Below are positions 1,671 through 64,000 of a DNA stretch of 64,000 nt, piece by piece (positions within the stretch are counted from its first letter, which is position 1; every line of letters starts with the position of its first letter). Origin of the DNA: Bacillota bacterium (GTDB taxonomy: Bacteria > Bacillota > Clostridia > Christensenellales > UMGS416). The position numbers were made by a program, and so were the translations under genes. Where the stretch lies: the NCBI GenBank assembly GCA_023410875.1, contig JAEYPH010000043.1, positions 19,096 through 83,095 of the forward strand, read 5' to 3'. The notes under the pieces were generated by a model, which was not told where the DNA came from, searched no databases, and was given only the letters and a program-made list of their open reading frames with translations.

Positions 1671-4295
1671 TTAGCTGCTCTTCTCCATGCGCTGCTTGAG
1701 ACGGTTGAGCAGATACAGCGCGTCGATGGGCGTCGTCGTCGTGATGTCCAGGTTGCGTATCTCGTCCAGCAGGCCGGCGTAGGGCACCGTGTCCATGAAG
1801 TTCAATTGCACTTGTGCGGTCTGGTCCTTGAGGTTGGCGGCGGTCTTCTCTACGTTGGCGCTGACGCGCTGCTTGTTGATGTCGGCAGCCTCCAGGCGTT
1901 TCAGAATCTCCCTGGAGCGGTCCAGCACCTCCTGGGGCAGGCCTGCCAGCCCGGCCACGTGGATGCCAAAGCTCTTGTCCGCGCCGCCGCGCACGATGCG
2001 CCGCAGGAACAGCACCTCGTCGCCCTGCTCCTTTACGCTGATGCAGTAGTTCTTGACGCCGGGCACTTTGTCTTCCAGCTCGGTCAGCTCGTGATAGTGG
2101 GTCGCGAACAGCGTCTTGGCCCCCACCCGCTCGGTGTTGCACAGGTATTCCACGACCGACCACGCGATGCTCAGGCCGTCGAAGGTGCTGGTGCCGCGGC
2201 CGATCTCATCCAGTATCACCAGCGAATGGCGCGTGGCCTTGTGCAGGATGGAGGCCATCTCGCTCATCTCCACCATGAACGTGCTCTGGCCCAGGAACAA
2301 GTCGTCGGAGGCGCCCACGCGGGTGAAGATTTTATCCAGGATGCAGATGGACGCCTTGCGGGCGGGCACGAAGCTGCCCATGTGGGCCAGTATCGCCATC
2401 ACGGCGACCTGGCGCAGATAGGTGCTCTTGCCGGCCATGTTGGGCCCGGTGATGATCAGGAAACGGTTGGCCGCCATGTCCAGCACCGTGTTGTTGGGCA
2501 CGAAGCTCTGGGAACCCAGCGCCCGCTCCACGACGGGGTGGCGTCCATCCACGATGTTGAGCACACCGTCGGTCGTGATGTCCGGGCGCACGAAGTTCTG
2601 GCGCAGGGCCACCCGGGCCAACGCCTGCAGCACGTCCAGCTGGGCCACGGCGCGGGCGCTGGCCTGCACCCGGGGGATCTGCTTTTCCAGCGCGTCGCGA
2701 ATTTCCTGGAACAGCGCCTGCTCCAACTTGACACTGCGTTCCTCGGCGTGCAGCACCGTGCTCTCCAACTCTTTGAGCTCCGGCGTGATGAAGCGCTCCG
2801 CGCCGGCCAGCGTCTGCTTGCGCGTGTAGCGGTAGGGCACCGAGCCCAGGTTGGATTTGGTAACCTCTATGAAGTAGCCGAACACCTTGTTGTAGCCGAT
2901 ACGCAGATTCTTGATGCCGGTGGCCTCGCGCTCGGAGGCCTCCATCTGGTTCATGATGGCCTGCCCGTTGGTGTAGGCGGCCCGCAGCGCGTCCAGCTCG
3001 GCGTGGTAGCCGTCGCGGATGATGCCACCATCGCGGATGCTCATGGGCGGGTTGTCGGCGATGGCGCTGTGCAGCAGCGCGCTCAGGTCGGCGCACGGGT
3101 CCATGCGCCCGTTGATGTCCGCGAGCAAGGCGCTGTGGCACACGGCCAGAGATTCCTTGACGGCGGGCAGCGTGGCCAGCGATTGGCCCAGCGCCTGACA
3201 GTCGCGGGCGTTCAGCGACGCGTAGGATACTTTGCTCAGGATGCGCTCGATGTCCTTGATAGCCGAAAGTTGGTCGGCCAGCGCGTCGCACAAGATCAGG
3301 TCACCTTTAAGCTCCTGCACGGCGTCCAGCCGGGCGTTGATGGCGACCGGCGACTGCAAGGGCAGCTCCAGCCAGTTCTTGAGCAGCCGCGCACCCATGG
3401 CCGTGGCAGTCTCATCCAGCAGCCACAGCAGTGAACCGCGGCGGGCCTGGCTGCGCAGCGTCTGCGTGAGCTCCAGGTTGCGCCGGGCGGCTGGGTCTAT
3501 GAACAGAAATTGCTGCAGCTCGTAGGCGGACGGCGGGTTCAGGTGGCTCAGCGCGTTTTTCTGGGTGGATTCCAGATAGCCCAGCATTGCCCCGGCGGCG
3601 CACAGCGCCGCGCCCTGCAGAGCGGACACCGCTGCCTCGCCAAAGCGGCCGCTCAAGGATCGCAACGCGGCGTCCGGCGCGAAGGCATCTTCCGGCAGCG
3701 CGGCGGAGGGCCAGCTTAAGAGCTTTCGGTAGGGGCTGTCCGACCCCACGGCCAGCAGCATGTCGGTGTTGACGAGAATCTCGCTGGGCCCCAGGCGCGT
3801 GAGCTCATCCAGCAGCGCGCTGGCGCGATCCTCCACGGCGGTCACGCGGAACTCGCCGGTGCTCACATCCACGGCGGCCAGGCCCACGATGCCGGCGTCC
3901 TTAAACAGGCTCACGATGTAGTTGGGCGCCTTCTCATCCAACATGGAGCTTTCGATGACGGTGCCCGGTGTGATGATGCGCACGACGTCGCGCTCCACGA
4001 GGCCGCTGGACTCGGCGGGATCGCTCATCTGCTCGCAGATGGCCACCTTGTAGCCCTTGGCCAGCAGGCGGTTCACGTATTGATCCACACTGTGGAAGGG
4101 CACGCCGCACATGGGCGCGCGCTCCTGCAGGCCGCAGTCGCGGCCGGTCAGCGTCAGCTCCAGCTCCCGCGAGGCCAGCACCGCGTCCTCAAAGAACATC
4201 TCGTAGAAGTCGCCCAGGCGGAAGAACAGCAGCGCGTCGGGGTACTGCTCCTTGAGCTGCATGTATTGCGCCATCATCGGCGACAGCTTTGCCAT
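1671..4295 (-). CDS. mutS: DNA mismatch repair protein MutS
   Basis: 874-aa ORF. N-terminus is MAKLSPMMAQYMQLKEQYPDALLFFRLGDFYEMFFEDA. Walker A is ITGPNMAGKSTYLRQ, followed by the DEIGRGTSTFDG motif. Confidence 0.97.
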   Translation of the reverse strand: MAKLSPMMAQYMQLKEQYPDALLFFRLGDFYEMFFEDAVLASRELELTLTGRDCGLQERAPMCGVPFHSVDQYVNRLLAKGYKVAICEQMSDPAESSGLVERDVVRIITPGTVIESSMLDEKAPNYIVSLFKDAGIVGLAAVDVSTGEFRVTAVEDRASALLDELTRLGPSEILVNTDMLLAVGSDSPYRKLLSWPSAALPEDAFAPDAALRSLSGRFGEAAVSALQGAALCAAGAMLGYLESTQKNALSHLNPPSAYELQQFLFIDPAARRNLELTQTLRSQARRGSLLWLLDETATAMGARLLKNWLELPLQSPVAINARLDAVQELKGDLILCDALADQLSAIKDIERILSKVSYASLNARDCQALGQSLATLPAVKESLAVCHSALLADINGRMDPCADLSALLHSAIADNPPMSIRDGGIIRDGYHAELDALRAAYTNGQAIMNQMEASEREATGIKNLRIGYNKVFGYFIEVTKSNLGSVPYRYTRKQTLAGAERFITPELKELESTVLHAEERSVKLEQALFQEIRDALEKQIPRVQASARAVAQLDVLQALARVALRQNFVRPDITTDGVLNIVDGRHPVVERALGSQSFVPNNTVLDMAANRFLIITGPNMAGKSTYLRQVAVMAILAHMGSFVPARKASICILDKIFTRVGASDDLFLGQSTFMVEMSEMASILHKATRHSLVILDEIGRGTSTFDGLSIAWSVVEYLCNTERVGAKTLFATHYHELTELEDKVPGVKNYCISVKEQGDEVLFLRRIVRGGADKSFGIHVAGLAGLPQEVLDRSREILKRLEAADINKQRVSANVEKTAANLKDQTAQVQLNFMDTVPYAGLLDEIRNLDITTTTPIDALYLLNRLKQRMEKSS

Positions 4296-6746: not shown

Positions 6747-6806
6747 ATGGGGAACGCTGAGCGTGCCGCTCTTTTTACCCTCCGCCGGCGGAGGAATGGA
6801 GTCATC

Positions 6807-7643
6807 ATGTTTTCCAACTTCGTCAATCCCCTGTCCGACCTGACCGGCGTGAGCTGGTACTCCTTCGCCGCAGTGGCCGTGCTGGTGCTGGCGGCGCTGG
6901 TGTTCATCCTGGCCAGCCGTCTGAAGGCGCTGCCCAAGATCGTGCTGGCTGTCGTGGCCACGGCCACGATGGTGTTCCTCGTGGCCTTGCTCTTCGCCAG
7001 CGCCGCCAGCTCGCTGGACCAGCCGCTGGAATGGAGCGGCGTTACGCTGAATGCGGCCGTGGCGCTGGTGTGCCTGGCGCTGTTGGTGGGGCTGTTCTTC
7101 GCGCTGCGCCGGCTGCAACTGGACACCCGCGCGCTGGTGGCGGCTTCGCTGTGCATCGCGCTGGGCTTCATTCTCTCCAACCTGAAGTTTTACCAGATGC
7201 CCCAGGGCGGCAGCATCACACCGGCCAGCATGCTGCCTGTCATGCTGTTCGCGTGGGCCTTCGGCCCCATCCCCGGCTTCGCCGCCGGCCTCGTGTATGG
7301 CGCGCTGCAGCTGCTGCAAGATTTCTATGTTGTGCACCCGGCGCAGCTGCTGCTGGATTACATCTTCGCCTTCACGGCGCTGGGCCTGGCCGGTTTCTTC
7401 CGCAAGAACCTGCTGTTGGGCGTTCTCGTGGCGGGGCTCACGCGCTTCGTGTTTCACTTCCTGTCCGGCGTCGTGTTCTTCGGTTCTTTCGCCGAGGATC
7501 AGAATGTGTTCGTGTACAGCCTGGTCTACAACGCCTCGGTCGTGCTGCCCGACACCGCCATCTGCCTGGTCATCGCGGCCATTCCGGGTTTCCGCCGCGC
7601 CATGGAGCGGGTGTTCAAGGCTTCGGCCACGGTCAAGGCATAA
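6807..7643 (+). CDS. thiT: Thiamine transporter ThiT family (ECF S-component-like) with N-terminal transmembrane extension
   Basis: The C-terminal about 180 aa resemble ThiT (KFYQMPQGGSITPASMLPVML..., GLAGFFRKN...FVFHFLSGVVFF...VYSLVYNASVVLPD). It follows the TPP riboswitch. Start MFSNFV is preceded by GGAGGA. Confidence 0.8.
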   Translation: MFSNFVNPLSDLTGVSWYSFAAVAVLVLAALVFILASRLKALPKIVLAVVATATMVFLVALLFASAASSLDQPLEWSGVTLNAAVALVCLALLVGLFFALRRLQLDTRALVAASLCIALGFILSNLKFYQMPQGGSITPASMLPVMLFAWAFGPIPGFAAGLVYGALQLLQDFYVVHPAQLLLDYIFAFTALGLAGFFRKNLLLGVLVAGLTRFVFHFLSGVVFFGSFAEDQNVFVYSLVYNASVVLPDTAICLVIAAIPGFRRAMERVFKASATVKA

Positions 7644-19461: not shown

Positions 19462-19572
19462 AACCTCACCTTGTTGCATCCAGAATACAATGTTGTACAT
19501 TCTAATGCAACTCAAACAAGCTTTGAGGCTGTCGGGCTAGATGCATAAAGTGCAAACTTCAGATAGCTGGTA

Positions 19573-19727
19573 AGGATTTCGCGCCTTTCTTGGCGCGACC
19601 TGCGCACCATCTCGCCGGCATCCAGCCGGCTGAAGCGGCAAAGCCGCTTCCGATGGTGCTGGGCTGCGGCGCATCCTGCGCAAGGGCCAAAGGGCTTTCC
19701 GATCGCCCTTTGGAAACCTTCGGCCTC
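19573..19727 (-). repeat. Structured intergenic repeat, copy A (core 19687-19724)
   Basis: The reverse complement carries the invariant core GCCGAAGGTTTCCAAAGGGCGATCGGAAAGCCCTTTGG and the 3' block GCGAAATCC that are shared with copies B, C and D. It lies between the GHKL ATPase gene and the HydS-like gene. Confidence 0.85.
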
Positions 19728-19780
19728 TATCTGATTATTATTTATGCAATCATGCCATTAACACAACAGCCCTTATATCC

Positions 19781-26267: not shown

Positions 26268-26315
26268 GATAATTCGGACGGGGGACACGTCCCCCGCCGA
26301 GCCACCCCCTTTTGG

Positions 26316-26343
26316 TCGCCCGCGATGCTTGCATCGCGGGCGA
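26316..26343 (+). terminator. Probable groEL terminator hairpin
   Basis: TCGCCCGCGAT-GCTTGC-ATCGCGGGCGA, followed by TTGCTAT. The U-tract is weak. Confidence 0.45.
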
Positions 26344-26438
26344 TTGCTATGCGCTTATCCGCCGTTAGCCGCCCGCCGCTCATGTCGCCGGGCGGCTGAC
26401 CGTTTCATCTCCCTGTGCTTGCGGCGCATGGTGCGATG

Positions 26439-26620
26439 GACCGCTGCGGCGGGGCTTTTACGACTGCCTCTTCCCTGCTGCCGTTTGCCTAGGCCGGATA
26501 AACCGGCCGTCAGCGTCAGGCTTCCGGTTATCGCTCGCTTATCATTTATTAATTGGGTGCCGAAGGTTTCCAAAGGGCGATCGGAAAGCCCTTTGGTTGC
26601 ACCCGCAGGTGCGAAATCCT
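26439..26620 (+). repeat. Structured intergenic repeat, copy B (core 26559-26596; extended module shared with copy C)
   Basis: Contains GGGTGCCGAAGGTTTCCAAAGGGCGATCGGAAAGCCCTTTGGTTGCACCCGCAGGTGCGAAATCC. Upstream blocks GACCGCTGCGGCGGGG, CCGTTTGCCT and CAGGCTTCCG are also present in copy C. Confidence 0.85.
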
Positions 26621-26624
26621 GCTA

Positions 26625-26660
26625 AAAGGCCCTCTGCCAATATCTCGGCAGAGGGCCTTT
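26625..26660. terminator. Bidirectional terminator (efp / groEL region)
   Basis: AAAGGCCCTCTGCC-AATATCTC-GGCAGAGGGCCTTT. On the minus strand it is followed by TTTTAG, and it lies 17 nt after the efp stop. Confidence 0.75.
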
Positions 26661-26676
26661 GTAAACGAATTGTGGG

Positions 26677-27234
26677 TTAGGCTCTTTCCATGTACTCACC
26701 GGTACGGGTGTCAATGCGCAGCTTTTCCCCGGTGTTAATGAAGAGAGGAACCATGACCGTGTAGCCGGTCTCCAGCTTTGCGGGCTTCAGGGTGTTGGTG
26801 GCGGTGTCGCCCTTGAAGCCGGGCTCGGTCTCCACAACTTTGAGCTCCACAAAGTTCGGCGGCTGCACCGAGAAGGGCTTGCCCTTGAAGAAGCGGATCG
26901 TCACACTCATGTTCTCCACGAGGTAAGGCAGCGCCTCCTCGATCTGATCCTTTGTCAGCTGCAGCTGTTCGAAGTTCTCGTTGTCCATGAAGTGATAGAA
27001 CTCGCCGTCCTCATAAAGGTACTGCATGTCCTTGGTTTCGATCATGGCTCTGGGCATCTTGTCCGTGGGGTTGAAGGTGCGCTCCAGCACCGCGCCGGTG
27101 ATGACGTTCTTGATCTTCGTGCGCACAAAGGCCGCACCCTTGCCGGGCTTCACATGCTGGAAATCGACGATGACAAACACGTTGTTTTCGATCTCGATGG
27201 TCAGACCCTTTTTAAAATCGCTGGCATTGATCAT
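26677..27234 (-). CDS. efp: Elongation factor P
   Basis: 185 aa. [44 protein letters not shown]. Confidence 0.97.
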
Positions 27235-39251: not shown

Positions 39252-39569
39252 GGGGTTTCGCATCAGCGGATGCGACCAAAGGGCTTTCCGGTCGCCCTTT
39301 GGAAACCTTCGGCACCCATTTTTGGAAGGGGTAATCTAAATGCTTGTGTAGTGCAAGGGTCTGCCTTCGCTGCGGTGTCCAATAAACCCTCACCCGCACC
39401 CTCCCTCAAAGGGGGAGGGACTATTTTGTATATTACCCCTCCCCCTTTGGGGGAGGGGTTGGGGGTGAGGGTTTACGCGGACGGAAGCCTGTTGCCGACG
39501 ACGGTTCACCCGGCGGAGGCAAACGGTTAATGAGAAAGAATCGCTCGGAAAGACCCCGCCGCAGCGGTC
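39252..39569 (-). repeat. Structured intergenic repeat, copy C (core 39276-39313; extended, with internal insertion)
   Basis: The reverse complement carries GGGTGCCGAAGGTTTCCAAAGGGCGACCGGAAAGCCCTTTGGTCGCATCCGCTGATGCGAAACCCC plus the upstream blocks shared with copy B. It is interrupted by the 39384-39474 palindrome. Confidence 0.85.
39384..39474. repeat. Nested G/C-tract palindrome (three-helix cruciform/cloverleaf potential)
   Basis: Outer arms are AAACCCTCACCC and GGGTGAGGGTTT. They enclose two hairpins: CCCTCCC-TCAAAGG-GGGAGGG and CCCCTCCCCC-TTT-GGGGGAGGGG. Confidence 0.8.
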
Positions 39570-39608: not shown

Positions 39609-39638
39609 GCCCGCCGGCGACGGTTATCGCCGGCGGGC
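39609..39638 (-). terminator. Rho-independent terminator (second of two downstream of the 39860..40516 gene)
   Basis: GCCCGCCGGCGA-(6 nt)-TCGCCGGCGGGC, followed on the minus strand by CTTTTGG. Confidence 0.65.
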
Positions 39639-61637: not shown

Positions 61638-61782
61638 GAAGAATTTCGCGCCCTTCGTTGCGCTTTGCGCAACTATCGGTTTGCTCTCACATCGGCTAAA
61701 GCCGACGTTGCCGCAAGCCGGGGCATGGCCTGCAGGCGCGACCAAAGGGCTTTCCGGTCGCCCTTTGGAAACCTTCGGCCCC
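61638..61782 (-). repeat. Structured intergenic repeat, copy D (core 61742-61779)
   Basis: The reverse complement carries GGGGCCGAAGGTTTCCAAAGGGCGACCGGAAAGCCCTTTGG, then TCGCGCC-(82 nt)-GGCGCGA, then AATTC. It starts about 20 nt after the GH2 stop. Confidence 0.85.
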
Positions 61783-61800
61783 ATCTGTATGATCTAGCGA

Positions 61801-64000
61801 CTATTCAGCCTGAAGAACCAACCGCGCGCTCTGCAATCCTTCTGCGCTAACAGTCAGTGTAACCGCTCCCGGCTGGCCCAAGCTCTTGAGCGCGCACACC
61901 GCCGTGCCCTCAAAGGCGCTGCGGCAGTTGCCTGTGTAGGGTTCGCGGGAGACCGGGTCGTTGGTGCCCACGGCGGCCAGCGTGCCCGCGCCGCTGGCGG
62001 TGAAGTACAGCATGTTGCCGGCATAGGGCACCGGCTGCCCCTGCGCGTCCACAACCGTGGCCGTTGCATAGGCCAACCCCTGCCAGCCCGCCTCCATCTG
62101 GGCGCGGTCGGCGTCCAGGCGGATGGCCGCGGGCGCGCCGCAGGTCTGCAACGCGTCTTCCGACACCGCCTTGCCGCCCACATAGGCCACAGCCTTTACG
62201 CTGCCCGGCGCGTAAACGGTCTCAAAACTGGCGATGTTGCGCGCGGCGGAGCCGGCGGGCTGGCGGCCCAGCGACACGCCATTGACGATCAGATCCACCT
62301 CGTCGGCGTCGCTGTAGACGTCGATATAGGTTTTGTATCCTTCGGCGCCGGGCCAGCTCCAGCTGTGGTGCACATCGCTCCAGCCCCAGTAGTTGTAGCT
62401 GGGCTTGACGCCCTTGGCGTTGGGCCGGTGCACGGCAATCCACGGCGCTTGGCGGTGGCCCCAGAGGATTTGCCGGTAGTAGGACTGGGGCCGGGGCCGG
62501 CACAGGATGTCCAGATCGCCGCAATTGGCCAGATGCCACGGAAAGCCCAGGCCGTGGGTGCGGCCATCCTCGTCGGGCAGGAAGGAATGGCCGATGCCCG
62601 CCTCACCGATGTAGTCCATGCTGGTCCACACGCAGTCGCCGATGACCCGGGGATCAGCCAAAGTGGCCTGCCAGGTCTCCCATGCCTCGCCGGCGATGGT
62701 CTCAGTGCCCAGTATGAAGCGGTCCGGGAAGCGCTGCAGATCCTCCTCGTAGCGCCGCCACAGATAATTATAACCCACGACGTCCAGCGGCGCGGCAAAG
62801 GGCGCACTGCTCTCGCCCCACTCCCCCTCCGGGTATTCAAAGGCGCCGCACAGCGCGTTGGAGACAAAGCGCGTGCCGTCCAGCTCCCGCACGGCGTCGG
62901 CCAGGCGGCGGGCCAGCTCATAGCCGCCGGAGCGGCCGAAGCGCTCGGTGATCTCGTTGCCGGTGGACCAGAAGGCGATGCTGGGGTGGTTGCGATCCCG
63001 CAACACCATGGATGTCAGGTCCCGCTGCCACCAGTCCTCAAAGTACAGATGATAATCGTAGGGTGTCTTGCCCATGCGCCAGCAGTCGAAGGCCTCGTCC
63101 ATGACGACCAGGCCGATGCGATCACAGGCGTCCAGGAAATCCACCGACGGCGGGTTGTGGGCGCAGCGCACGGCGTTGTATCCGGCGTCCTTGAGAGCGC
63201 GGGCCTTGCGCTCCTCGGCAGCTCGCCACGCGGCGGAACCCAGAATGCCGCAGTCGTGGTGCACGCAGCCGCCCTTGAGCTTGAGCGGTTTGCCGTTGAG
63301 CAGGAAGCCCTGGTCCTTGTCCAGCGCGATGGTGCGGATGCCGACTGTCGTTTCCACCGCGTCCGCCACCGCGCCGTCCGCCAGCAGCTCGCTGCGCAGC
63401 GTATAGAGGTTGGGGGCATCCACATCCCATAGAAGGGGCTGCGCGACGGCCAACTCCTGCACGTTGCGGCCCTCGGCCTGGGCCTCACAGGTGGCCACCG
63501 CCGCGCCGGAAGCGTCCAGCAGCGAGTGCCGCAGCAGGCCCGCGCCGCACAGTTGGGTTTCTACTCGCAACAGGGCGCGTTGCTCAGTTGCCTCCACCGT
63601 GGAGGCAAAGACCCCCCAGGGTGCGATGTGCGCGCCTTCGGCGACGAGCAGCCACACCGGGCGGTACAGGCCGCTGCCGGAATACCAGCGGGAATTGGGC
63701 AGCGCGTTGTTGTGCACGCGAATCTGCAACTCGTTGGGCGCGTCCTCCAGCAGCCAAGGCGTCAGGTCCGCGTGGAAGGATGTGTAGCCGTAGGGGTGGA
63801 AGGCCGCCAGGTTGCCGTTGACGAACACCTCGGTGTTCATGTAGGCGCCCTCGACCTCCAGCACCGCCTTGCCGGGCTTGCCGGCGGGCAGCGTCTTGCG
63901 ATAGACGCCGCTGCCGCCCTGGAAGAAGCCGCCCTTGTCCAGCATGCGGCTGTCGGCGGTGCGCGGCTGGCCGATGGAAAAGTCGTGGGGCAAATCGACG
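61801..64000 (-). CDS. Glycoside hydrolase family 2 (beta-galactosidase/beta-glucuronidase-like), 5' end outside window
   Basis: The frame is open to the window edge (..VDLPHDFSI, the typical GH2 sugar-binding domain start). ...NAVRCAHNPPS...WSTGNE carries the catalytic acid/base NE motif. The ORF-track start at 63993 is an internal TTG. Confidence 0.85.
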   Translation of the reverse strand, partial: VDLPHDFSIGQPRTADSRMLDKGGFFQGGSGVYRKTLPAGKPGKAVLEVEGAYMNTEVFVNGNLAAFHPYGYTSFHADLTPWLLEDAPNELQIRVHNNALPNSRWYSGSGLYRPVWLLVAEGAHIAPWGVFASTVEATEQRALLRVETQLCGAGLLRHSLLDASGAAVATCEAQAEGRNVQELAVAQPLLWDVDAPNLYTLRSELLADGAVADAVETTVGIRTIALDKDQGFLLNGKPLKLKGGCVHHDCGILGSAAWRAAEERKARALKDAGYNAVRCAHNPPSVDFLDACDRIGLVVMDEAFDCWRMGKTPYDYHLYFEDWWQRDLTSMVLRDRNHPSIAFWSTGNEITERFGRSGGYELARRLADAVRELDGTRFVSNALCGAFEYPEGEWGESSAPFAAPLDVVGYNYLWRRYEEDLQRFPDRFILGTETIAGEAWETWQATLADPRVIGDCVWTSMDYIGEAGIGHSFLPDEDGRTHGLGFPWHLANCGDLDILCRPRPQSYYRQILWGHRQAPWIAVHRPNAKGVKPSYNYWGWSDVHHSWSWPGAEGYKTYIDVYSDADEVDLIVNGVSLGRQPAGSAARNIASFETVYAPGSVKAVAYVGGKAVSEDALQTCGAPAAIRLDADRAQMEAGWQGLAYATATVVDAQGQPVPYAGNMLYFTASGAGTLAAVGTNDPVSREPYTGNCRSAFEGTAVCALKSLGQPGAVTLTVSAEGLQSARLVLQAE

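Follow-up and report, generated by a model that had tools for sequence, protein, structure and literature searches.

What is the short structured repeat that stands four times between the genes of contig JAEYPH010000043.1 from a Bacillota bacterium, and what keeps its structure? We analysed a stretch of 64,000 nt of this contig (the window, with coordinates counted from its first letter), in which a sequence-only reading had seen a four-copy element, one copy of it downstream of groEL, and had proposed either an unannotated non-coding RNA or something like a transposable element of the miniature inverted-repeat kind (MITE). The four window copies are ordinary members of a family that is large and undescribed, made up of short repeats of gut Clostridia and their phages. 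We give about an even chance to the view that this family is a non-autonomous structured repeat similar to repetitive extragenic palindromic (REP) sequences, bacterial interspersed mosaic elements (BIMEs) and REPINs, and that it carries an unusual conserved fold. Judged by the changes among its copies, the conserved unit appears to be an H-type pseudoknot of about 40 nt, with hairpin 1 of the earlier reading as its second stem (S2).

Range of the family and searches for known relatives

The 38-nt core reported earlier, GCCGAAGGTTTCCAAAGGGCGAYCGGAAAGCCCTTTGG, was recovered exactly as described, with zero mismatches at 26559-26596 on the plus strand and at 19687-19724, 39276-39313 and 61742-61779 on the minus strand. 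Elsewhere in the window there was no match with up to three mismatches, and there was none in 100 shuffles (0 expected). A covariance model built from 97 short-form copies of relatives found the same four copies in the window and nothing else (87, 84.8, 63.9 and 53.8 bits), and it gave 175 matches in 746 kb of related loci, diverged variants included.

A scan of a genome collection with the pattern GAAGGTTTCCAAAGGGC-N9-GCCCTTTGG returned at least 108 stretches, with 136 copies among the matches listed. Those genomes whose titles name a taxon are Clostridia, Clostridiales, Christensenellales/Christensenellaceae, Ca. Limiplasma and Ca. Egerieenecus, with the exception of a few under the labels Bacillota, Eubacteriales, Oscillospiraceae or Lachnospiraceae. 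Many of them hold several copies, some in tandem, and many copies lie at contig ends. A variant loop-stem, GGGGCGANCGSAAAGCCCC, was scanned for in metagenomes and matched more than 100 stretches at least, from gut and rumen, and GGGCGANCGSAAAGCCC likewise matched more than 100 stretches at least in a phage collection. All three scans are biased by their patterns, all family-wide counts below rest on the matches listed, and the copies are related by descent, so that the counts are not counts of independent events. The phage contigs were verified as phage by matches to terminase, portal, major head and baseplate proteins, and they carry three to four copies between structural genes. A genome close to that of the window is GCA_023393195.1.

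The sequence-only reading had recognised no Rfam family in the core, and the repeat is indeed absent from Rfam at gathering and at permissive thresholds. At gathering scores, Rfam 15 matched only a TPP riboswitch in the whole window (RF00059, 6602-6706, plus strand, 57.9 bits against a gathering score of 54.3), which lies just upstream of an open reading frame (ORF) at 6747-7643. At E<=10 nothing relevant was found in 26400-26700, and no Rfam match overlapped the element in 20 metagenome loci. The plasmid collection gave no match to the element, the matches in the phage GenBank collection were unannotated faecal contigs only, and no description of the motif was found in the literature.

A pseudoknot with a linker-stem code

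According to the earlier reading, every copy can fold into a three-way junction in which a closing helix, AAGGUUUC with GAAA-YCUU, encloses two hairpins. The hairpins are kept by compensatory changes, as that reading had claimed. Among 147 distinct aligned copies, 99.7% of the cells of hairpin 1 are paired and six of its nine pairs have changed on both sides, for example from CCAAAGGGC/GCCCUUUGG to CCAGGGGGC/GCCCCCUGG, GCAGGGGGC, GGAGGGGGC or GUCAGGGGC; for hairpin 2 the corresponding values are 93% and seven of seven. Over the whole structure 17 of 25 pairs have changed on both sides, against 8.6 expected, and 91.5% of cells are paired, against 29-57% for slid structures; none of 500 shuffles reached the observed values. 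The closing helix fares worse. It is 72-76% paired, its outer A-U pairs are present in about half of the copies, and the tail does not covary: copies with GGGGU in place of GGUUU in the 5' strand still end in AAAYCC. From these comparisons hairpin 2 is a covarying GC hairpin, and a dispensable one, as many metagenome and phage subfamilies have neither hairpin 2 nor the tail. Because the closing helix lacks support and such subfamilies exist, the three-way junction is not the conserved unit.

What the relatives share is hairpin 1 and a second, interlocked helix. In this first pseudoknot stem (S1), a 5' (C/G)CG pairs with CG(G/C) in the hairpin-1 loop: the CC ahead of GAAGG, together with its G, pairs with loop CGG, and a CGC loop goes with a 5' GCG. 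The variable pair, between position -2 and loop position 6, is C-G in 251 of 317 instances, G-C in 61, U-G in 3 and another combination in 2, and both versions occur within one genome (L047). The parts follow each other as S1 5' strand, linker (L1), S2 5' strand, GA-N, S1 3' strand, AAA (L3) and S2 3' strand. This order is that of the classical H-type pseudoknot, where the major groove of S2 accommodates L1, and we infer a triplex pseudoknot from it; the AAA that follows the S1 3' strand would then cross the S1 minor groove. Nearest-neighbour folding returned only the two hairpins, and it scored both strands alike (z of -2.4 to -3.2).

The linker itself follows a code. Counted from the loop end, the 7-nt AAGGUUU is a base-by-base mirror image of the hairpin-1 purine strand, in that a G-C pair is faced by G and an A-U pair by U or A. 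This rule fits 376 of 405 cells (92.8%) over 87 distinct strings, but only 67-73% when the register is shifted by one and about 49% when it is shifted by two. Opposite A the linker has U 62 times, A 11, G 4 and C 2; opposite G it has G 303 times, A 7, U 6 and C 1. AAGGUUU goes with the hairpin-1 5' strand CCAAAGGGC, AAGGGGU with C(C/A)AGGGGGC, AAGGGUU with UCAGGGGC, AAGGGGGU with CUGGGGGGC, AAGGU with CCAGGGC, AAGGAGU with CCAGAGGGC and AAGG(A/U)GG with ..GGAGGGC. The length of the linker also tracks that of hairpin 1 (for example, 5 nt with a 7-bp stem and 7 nt with a 9-bp stem), and its register is that of a mirror, in which the linker has the direction of the pyrimidine strand and is antiparallel to the purine strand. 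By this code the linker is probably a third strand in the major groove of hairpin 1, forming G.G-C, U.A-U and A.A-U triples.

A different structure has to be weighed against the triplex, in which the G-run of the linker pairs with the C-run of hairpin 1 as a Watson-Crick helix, giving a two-state switch, or in which the linker pairs with the tail. A stem with n G-C pairs goes with a linker G-run of n-1 bases, which is also expected of a G-run/C-run helix, and the minimum-free-energy fold of one window copy (copy C) has a 4-bp GGUU/AACC closing helix. A Watson-Crick helix, however, would be antiparallel to the pyrimidine strand, to which the register found here runs parallel as a mirror. Mismatches would result for AAGGAGU facing CCAGAGGGC and for AAGG(U)GG facing ..GGAGGGC, and A-U pairs are matched by a linker U or A, never by the complement. 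The clearest case is the purine strand that reads CGGGAGG from the loop end, which faces AAGG(A/U)GG in eight distinct strings, four of them with U; the U variants opposite the interrupting A-U pair exclude a Watson-Crick helix with the C-rich strand, and the triplex code fits them. Pairing of linker and tail is opposed by a tail that does not covary with the linker and is absent from many subfamilies. We therefore regard both versions of this structure as quite unlikely. It is a tentative proposal, which we hold at somewhat less than even confidence, that the family represents a new natural class of nucleic-acid fold, namely a compact H-type pseudoknot in which the first loop and its own stem make up an unbroken antiparallel triplex of the purine-motif type, present in hundreds of copies and served by a dedicated protein.

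The sequence-only reading had argued for RNA from G-U pairs that would be A-C mismatches on the opposite strand. This argument does not survive in the larger set, in which hairpin 2 has 17 G-U and 15 A-C cases, a balance, and hairpin 1 has 1 G-U and 2 A-C. The triplex code does fit the strand chosen by that reading and not its complement. A conserved A-rich L3 (AAA) over a 3-bp GC S1 is typical of RNA H-type pseudoknots. Continuous antiparallel purine-motif triplexes are documented for DNA; to our knowledge, RNA strands are reported as excluded from them, and we know of no precedent for an RNA version.

Several other interpretations of the conserved segment were tried and rejected. The 5' GGG flank and the 3' CCC tail show no covariation of the kind that an outer helix would leave. 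A coding reading (ATG GGG CCG AAG...) is contradicted by a frame that differs among copies and by stems that covary. A hammerhead ribozyme of the type III layout would need a CUGANGA box, which is missing from the segment that joins the two hairpins, and Rfam gives no ribozyme match; a CsrA-type GGA loop motif is abolished by the CGC loop variant. The standard type has only GG runs, which rejects a G-quadruplex.

The window copies, their surroundings and the spread of the family

When the four loci were read, the earlier account proved correct for the sequences of hairpin 2 and the 3' tails as well as for both large inserts. Copy B, a short form on the plus strand (26553..26621, 87 bits), begins with a G-rich 5' lead (about 26553 to 26559), followed by the S1 5' strand CCG (26560-26562), the linker AAGGTTT (26563-26569) and hairpin 1 (P2), in which 26570-26578 pairs with 26588-26596. 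The hairpin-1 loop GATCGGAAA (26579-26587) contains the S1 3' strand CGG (26582-26584). Hairpin 2 (P3) pairs 26597-26603 with 26608-26614 around the loop CGCA, and the tail AATCCTG covers 26615-26621. The sequence-only reading had let this copy start at 26439, about 120 nt upstream of the repeat; the element itself covers about 26553-26621.

The other three copies are on the minus strand. Copy C is also a short form (39252..39318, 84.8 bits), with its S1 5' strand at 39312-39310, L1 at 39309-39303, P2 pairing 39302-39294 with 39284-39276 (loop 39293-39285), P3 pairing 39275-39269 with 39264-39258 (loop CGCT) and the tail AACCCC at 39257-39252. In the long-form copy A (19572..19729, 53.8 bits), S1 5' (19723-19721), L1 (19720-19714) and P2 (19713-19705 with 19695-19687, loop 19704-19696) are separated by an insert of about 88 nt (19686-19599) from P3 (19598-19592 with 19585-19579, loop AAGAAA) and the tail AATCCTT (19578-19572); an 8-bp inverted repeat, TCAGATAG/CTATCTGA, flanks the element immediately outside. 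Copy D, the second long form (61639..61784, 63.9 bits), has S1 5' at 61778-61776, L1 at 61775-61769, P2 at 61768-61760 with 61750-61742 (loop 61759-61751), a structured insert of 82 nt in the hairpin-2 loop between the P3 strands 61741-61735 and 61652-61646, and the tail AATTCTT at 61645-61639. A 10-nt string, TTGGTTCTTC, is common to 61815-61830 (minus strand) of the window and to about 3615-3630 of locus L106, in both cases about 45 nt upstream of a long-form copy; shared despite unrelated flanking genes, it is maybe due to chance, or maybe the long form extends further at its 5' side and there overlaps the GH2 ORF end.

The genes next to the four window copies are unrelated housekeeping genes and form no regulon. 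Copy A lies between a HATPase_c gene and a Fe-hydrogenase-like gene on the same strand, and copy B between the convergent groEL and efp. Between copy B and efp, outside the repeat, a hairpin read from the sequence (26624..26660, GGCCCTCTGCC...GGCAGAGGGCC with AAAA and TTT flanks) looks like a bidirectional terminator. It is kept in the related genome L018 and was not flagged by a strict terminator scan; with such a terminator-like hairpin in place, copy B could be transcribed from groEL but not from efp. Copy C follows a 218-aa ORF and a strong terminator-like hairpin and precedes a promoter-like site of addB. This hairpin, found by a consensus scan at 39609-39638 on the minus strand, has a 13-bp stem with 11 G-C pairs followed by CTTTTGG, and copy C is therefore probably outside the 3' untranslated region (UTR) of the 218-aa ORF. 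Copy D lies between convergent GH2 and URO-D-like genes, upstream of a terminator-like hairpin.

Two further structures were seen near these copies. Right after the groEL stop, at 26268-26350 (plus strand), are two GC-rich hairpins, CGGACGGGGGACACGTCCCCCGCCG and GGTCGCCCGCGATGCTTGCATCGCGGGCGATT, which are 100% identical in L018 while the spacer beyond them has diverged. They may serve as terminator of groEL or represent some other conserved structure of the 3' UTR. At about 39380-39480, some 70 nt upstream of copy C, lies a composite G/C-rich palindrome (...CCCTCACCCCCAACCCCTCCCCCAAAGGGGGAGGGG...CCCTCCCCCTTTGAGGGAGGGTGCGGGTGAGGG...), a different type of repeat or hairpin with a terminator-like flag on the plus strand.

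All four window copies are in the sense orientation of the gene on their 5' side (HATPase_c, groEL, the 218-aa ORF and GH2), as the sequence-only reading had said. In two of the four gaps (those of copies B and D) the genes are convergent, so that sense orientation is automatic there, and the pattern of four out of four is unrepresentative of the family. Genes were called with a self-trained ORF caller, which recovers groES/groEL and other window genes, and Pfam was used to check ten flanking genes from six loci with copies antisense to both neighbours; it confirmed the genes on both sides of the copy in L093, L039, L082 and L102 and the gene on one side in L031 and L049. Among the exact-core copies in genomes, 41 lie between co-directional genes (23 sense, 18 antisense), 33 between convergent and 4 between divergent genes, which is a REP-type placement. 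The metagenome set has 25 sense and 36 antisense co-directional copies, 16 convergent and 9 divergent, and the phage set 23 sense and 37 antisense, with no convergent or divergent copies. Copies thus occur in both orientations relative to transcription, which the sequence-only reading had itself named as a ground for refutation. The claim that they are always in sense fails outside the window, and the reading as a 3'-UTR RNA is essentially refuted by that measure. From the exact-core genome set we infer that the element settles between genes, with a clear preference for gene 3' ends, in either orientation. Its distances to stop and start codons are broad rather than fixed, no neighbouring protein family recurs among the loci, and the downstream genes are diverse. 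A riboswitch or other cis-regulatory leader was rejected on these grounds, given both orientations and the diversity of downstream genes.

Individual loci add to this picture. On the IMG/VR phage contigs L325, L269, L260, L233 and L305 all copies share a single orientation per contig, sense in some and antisense in others. In the metagenome loci L155, L195, L218, L146, L192 and L135, pseudoknot-only copies often lie -2 to 9 nt from a stop codon on the opposite strand, and for several such copies the TAA stop is the reverse complement of the hairpin-1 base (...CCCCCTTA). Locus L202 has three head-to-tail pseudoknot units with a 41-nt period (1943-2061, minus strand) directly upstream of a GGAG ribosome-binding site (RBS) and ATG; the gene that follows encodes 245 aa and starts MHNTFDETFTLKTRD. 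A type III toxin-antitoxin system of the ToxI kind was rejected, since the genes after tandem arrays start like those of ordinary metabolic proteins (by their starts as read, with no domain scan) and most copies are solitary.

The copies also bear signs of multiplication. Among the matches listed, adjacent pairs no more than 200 nt apart are tandem in 35 cases, head-to-head in 14 and tail-to-tail in 8, often with an AAAGGG type beside an AGGGGG type, and tandem arrays have periods of 41-141 nt. Most genomes have hairpin-2 sequences of their own, a pattern that suggests gene conversion or copying in bursts. The long form of copy D recurs in L106 at a non-orthologous site among unrelated genes (92% identity over 141 nt). 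A composite subfamily of about 200 nt (L001, L003, L009, L016, L041, L060, L070, L072, L088, L099 and others) has long terminal inverted repeats, with ends GCTGTCAGGMTAAGAA... and ...CCTGACAGC followed by a T-run, and at its apex the pseudoknot module and a GGGGC hairpin; its flanks are non-orthologous, and it is sense to the upstream gene in 11 of 11 determinable cases. The recurrence of copy D and the non-orthologous flanks of this subfamily point to dispersal.

Marks of a DDE-type MITE were sought as well. Flanking direct repeats showed no excess, so there are no target-site duplications, and complementarity of the flanks is barely above control (-16.5 against -14.8 kcal/mol) with no covariation between them, so there are no general terminal inverted repeats. 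A MITE of this type is rejected on both counts, the L001-type subfamily excepted for its terminal repeats. Compared with the 3'-UTR RNA, the other option of the sequence-only reading, a repeat of the MITE or REP kind, is the better fit.

Repeat architecture varies further within single loci. In L053 (1-2800, genome SIG372), intergenic arrays of many small hairpins, NNNNGGGC-(AAA/AGC/GAA)-GCCCNNNN, alternate with copies of the element in forward and inverted orientation, and a whole unit of about 280 nt is repeated three times. In L024 (about 450-520) and L089 (about 120-175), a module of hairpin 2 plus tail (GCGCACCCGCAGGTGCGAAACTTGG) is tandemly duplicated after one pseudoknot module.

Competing explanations, related systems and meaning

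In the explanation that we favour, the family would multiply into dispersed, tandem and inverted copies and form genome-specific subfamilies, and its fold would be conserved because a trans-acting factor recognises one strand, as RNA or as transient single-stranded DNA. Several observations weigh against it. Some subfamilies have a strong orientation preference, which a purely neutral repeat would not have: between co-directional genes, the sense to antisense ratio is 10:0 for the AUAGGGGC subtype (plus 2 convergent copies) and 8:25 for the AAGGGGGC subtype. Copy B is found at the same groEL-efp position in L018, whose groEL is 96.6% identical, with the pseudoknot 100% conserved in a spacer that has diverged with indels, and with hairpin 2 changed in a compensatory way, from A-U to G-C and from C-G to U-G; this retention points to selection or gene conversion rather than junk. 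A screen of genome and metagenome loci, about 1.5 Mb in all, found no HUH/Y1-like ORF, and inverted copies do not enclose a transposase. Neither an empty site nor a polymorphic insertion was caught. For an empty-site comparison the site at 50.0 kb of the window and L089 are too diverged, and the strain comparison through exact EF-P matches yielded near-identical genomes only. The consensus GGGGNCCGAAGGTTTCCAAAGGGCGAYCGGAAAGCCCTTTGGTCGCGCC..AAAYCC has no GTAG or CGTC tag, or its complement, beside either stem. The case for the triplex consists of covariation, and the two halves of the fold pull apart: the type of L3 speaks for RNA and the purine-motif triplex for DNA, so that the folding molecule may be either.

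The strongest competitor is a cis-acting RNA module in mRNAs, acting on stability, processing or termination (as a block to exonucleases, or as a site for an RNase or RNA-binding protein), a host signal that phages would have copied. It is favoured by some subfamilies and by copies A, B and D, which are placed so that read-through from upstream would include them in sense; copy B stands just before a terminator-like hairpin, a position conserved in L018. The subfamily of about 200 nt, with its long hairpin and T-run, is always sense where this can be told (11/11), as is the AUAGGGGC subtype between co-directional genes, and some copies lie immediately upstream of an RBS and ATG (L202, L219, L195). 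The AAA L3 over a 3-bp GC S1 is RNA-typical. Yet some half of all copies run antisense to the genes on either side, the phage contigs L233, L260 and L305 have antisense copies only, and copy C has a strong terminator-like hairpin ahead of it and a promoter-like site behind it. Stop and start distances are not fixed, neighbouring genes are unrelated, and the G-U and A-C mismatches of hairpin 2 are balanced. On this evidence we consider a cis-acting module unlikely, while still the most serious of the alternatives. Far less credible, indeed very improbable, is that the copies are independent small RNA genes, each with its own promoter and a product of about 70 nt starting at or near CCG. In the clade of the window the 5' flank is A/T-rich and ends ...A-A/G-A-T-G-G, loosely like a -10 element 7-8 nt before CCG, and a terminator-like hairpin follows copy B. 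However, conservation starts only about 7 nt before CCG, information upstream of position -7 is near zero family-wide, and there is no consistent terminator. Upstream of the four copies, the strand of the element showed no sigma-70-like promoter in any case; promoter matches were found only downstream of copy C (one) and on the opposite strand at copy D (two). Tandem arrays of 41-141 nt and copies that abut stop codons are not gene-like either.

REP, BIME and REPIN sequences with their RAYT transposases, in Proteobacteria, are short, GC-rich, hairpin-forming and present in many copies (PMC3733652; PMC3116915), and REP palindromes carry an unpaired GTAG or CGTC tag at one end (PMC3733652). The present family resembles them in its many extragenic copies, mainly between co-directional and convergent genes and downstream of coding regions, in its inverted or tandem clusters of two alternating types, in the lack of target-site duplications and in its lineage-specific families. 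It differs in having a larger unit (40-75 nt) with a pseudoknot and linker-stem code instead of a simple imperfect palindrome, in its hosts (Clostridia and phages), and in that no RAYT-like gene was found in the screened 1.5 Mb or so of genome and metagenome loci. Since neither the REP tag nor the marks of a MITE were found, we file the family as a repeat that behaves like the REP type, not as a member of a described family.

Other intergenic repeats share its modular build. BOX of Streptococcus pneumoniae and bcr1 of the Bacillus cereus group likewise have a core, a variable module and inserts, with compensatory changes, and the duplicated hairpin 2 of L024 and L089 resembles the variable boxB module of BOX; there is, however, no sequence similarity to either. 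bcr1 has a TTTAT target duplication and none was seen in the present family, and we know of no pseudoknot or triplex described for BOX or bcr1. A terminator-like MITE of the Correia kind (Neisseria) is matched only by the L001-type subfamily of about 200 nt, with its long terminal inverted repeats and T-run, which would fold as one long hairpin similar to a terminator, whereas the window copies have neither conserved terminal inverted repeats nor target-site duplications.

As a fold, the element is comparable with the SAM-II riboswitch, the telomerase RNA pseudoknot, ENE and ToxI, which are likewise small and H-type, with L1 in the major groove and an A-rich third loop. Those structures use U.A-U (and C+.G-C) Hoogsteen triples in which the third strand lies parallel to purines on the 3' side, whereas the present family has its purines in the 5' strand and follows an antiparallel code, G.G-C, U.A-U and A.A-U. 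ToxI-like units occur as tandem repeats and are mimicked by phages; unlike ToxI and riboswitches, the family has no fixed gene association and no Rfam match, and the starts of genes downstream of its arrays are not toxin-like. Its base code and the polarity of its third strand relative to the purine strand are those of purine-motif DNA triplexes (G.GC, T.AT, A.AT). In contrast to designed oligonucleotides and to the homopurine mirror repeats of H-DNA, the third strand would here belong to a pseudoknot found in nature, with a 3-bp helix beside it.

The family is a widespread, unannotated structured element of gut and rumen Clostridia and their phages, with a sequence signature by which it can be searched for. 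In practice, the repeat breaks assemblies, leaving copies at contig ends, and it can be mistaken for small RNA genes or 3'-UTR motifs. If physically true, its triplex would be a natural example of a type known mainly from designed DNA, and if the fold is one of single-stranded DNA, it would be a structured DNA signal common to hosts and phages. That hosts and phages share the element hints at a common trans-acting factor.

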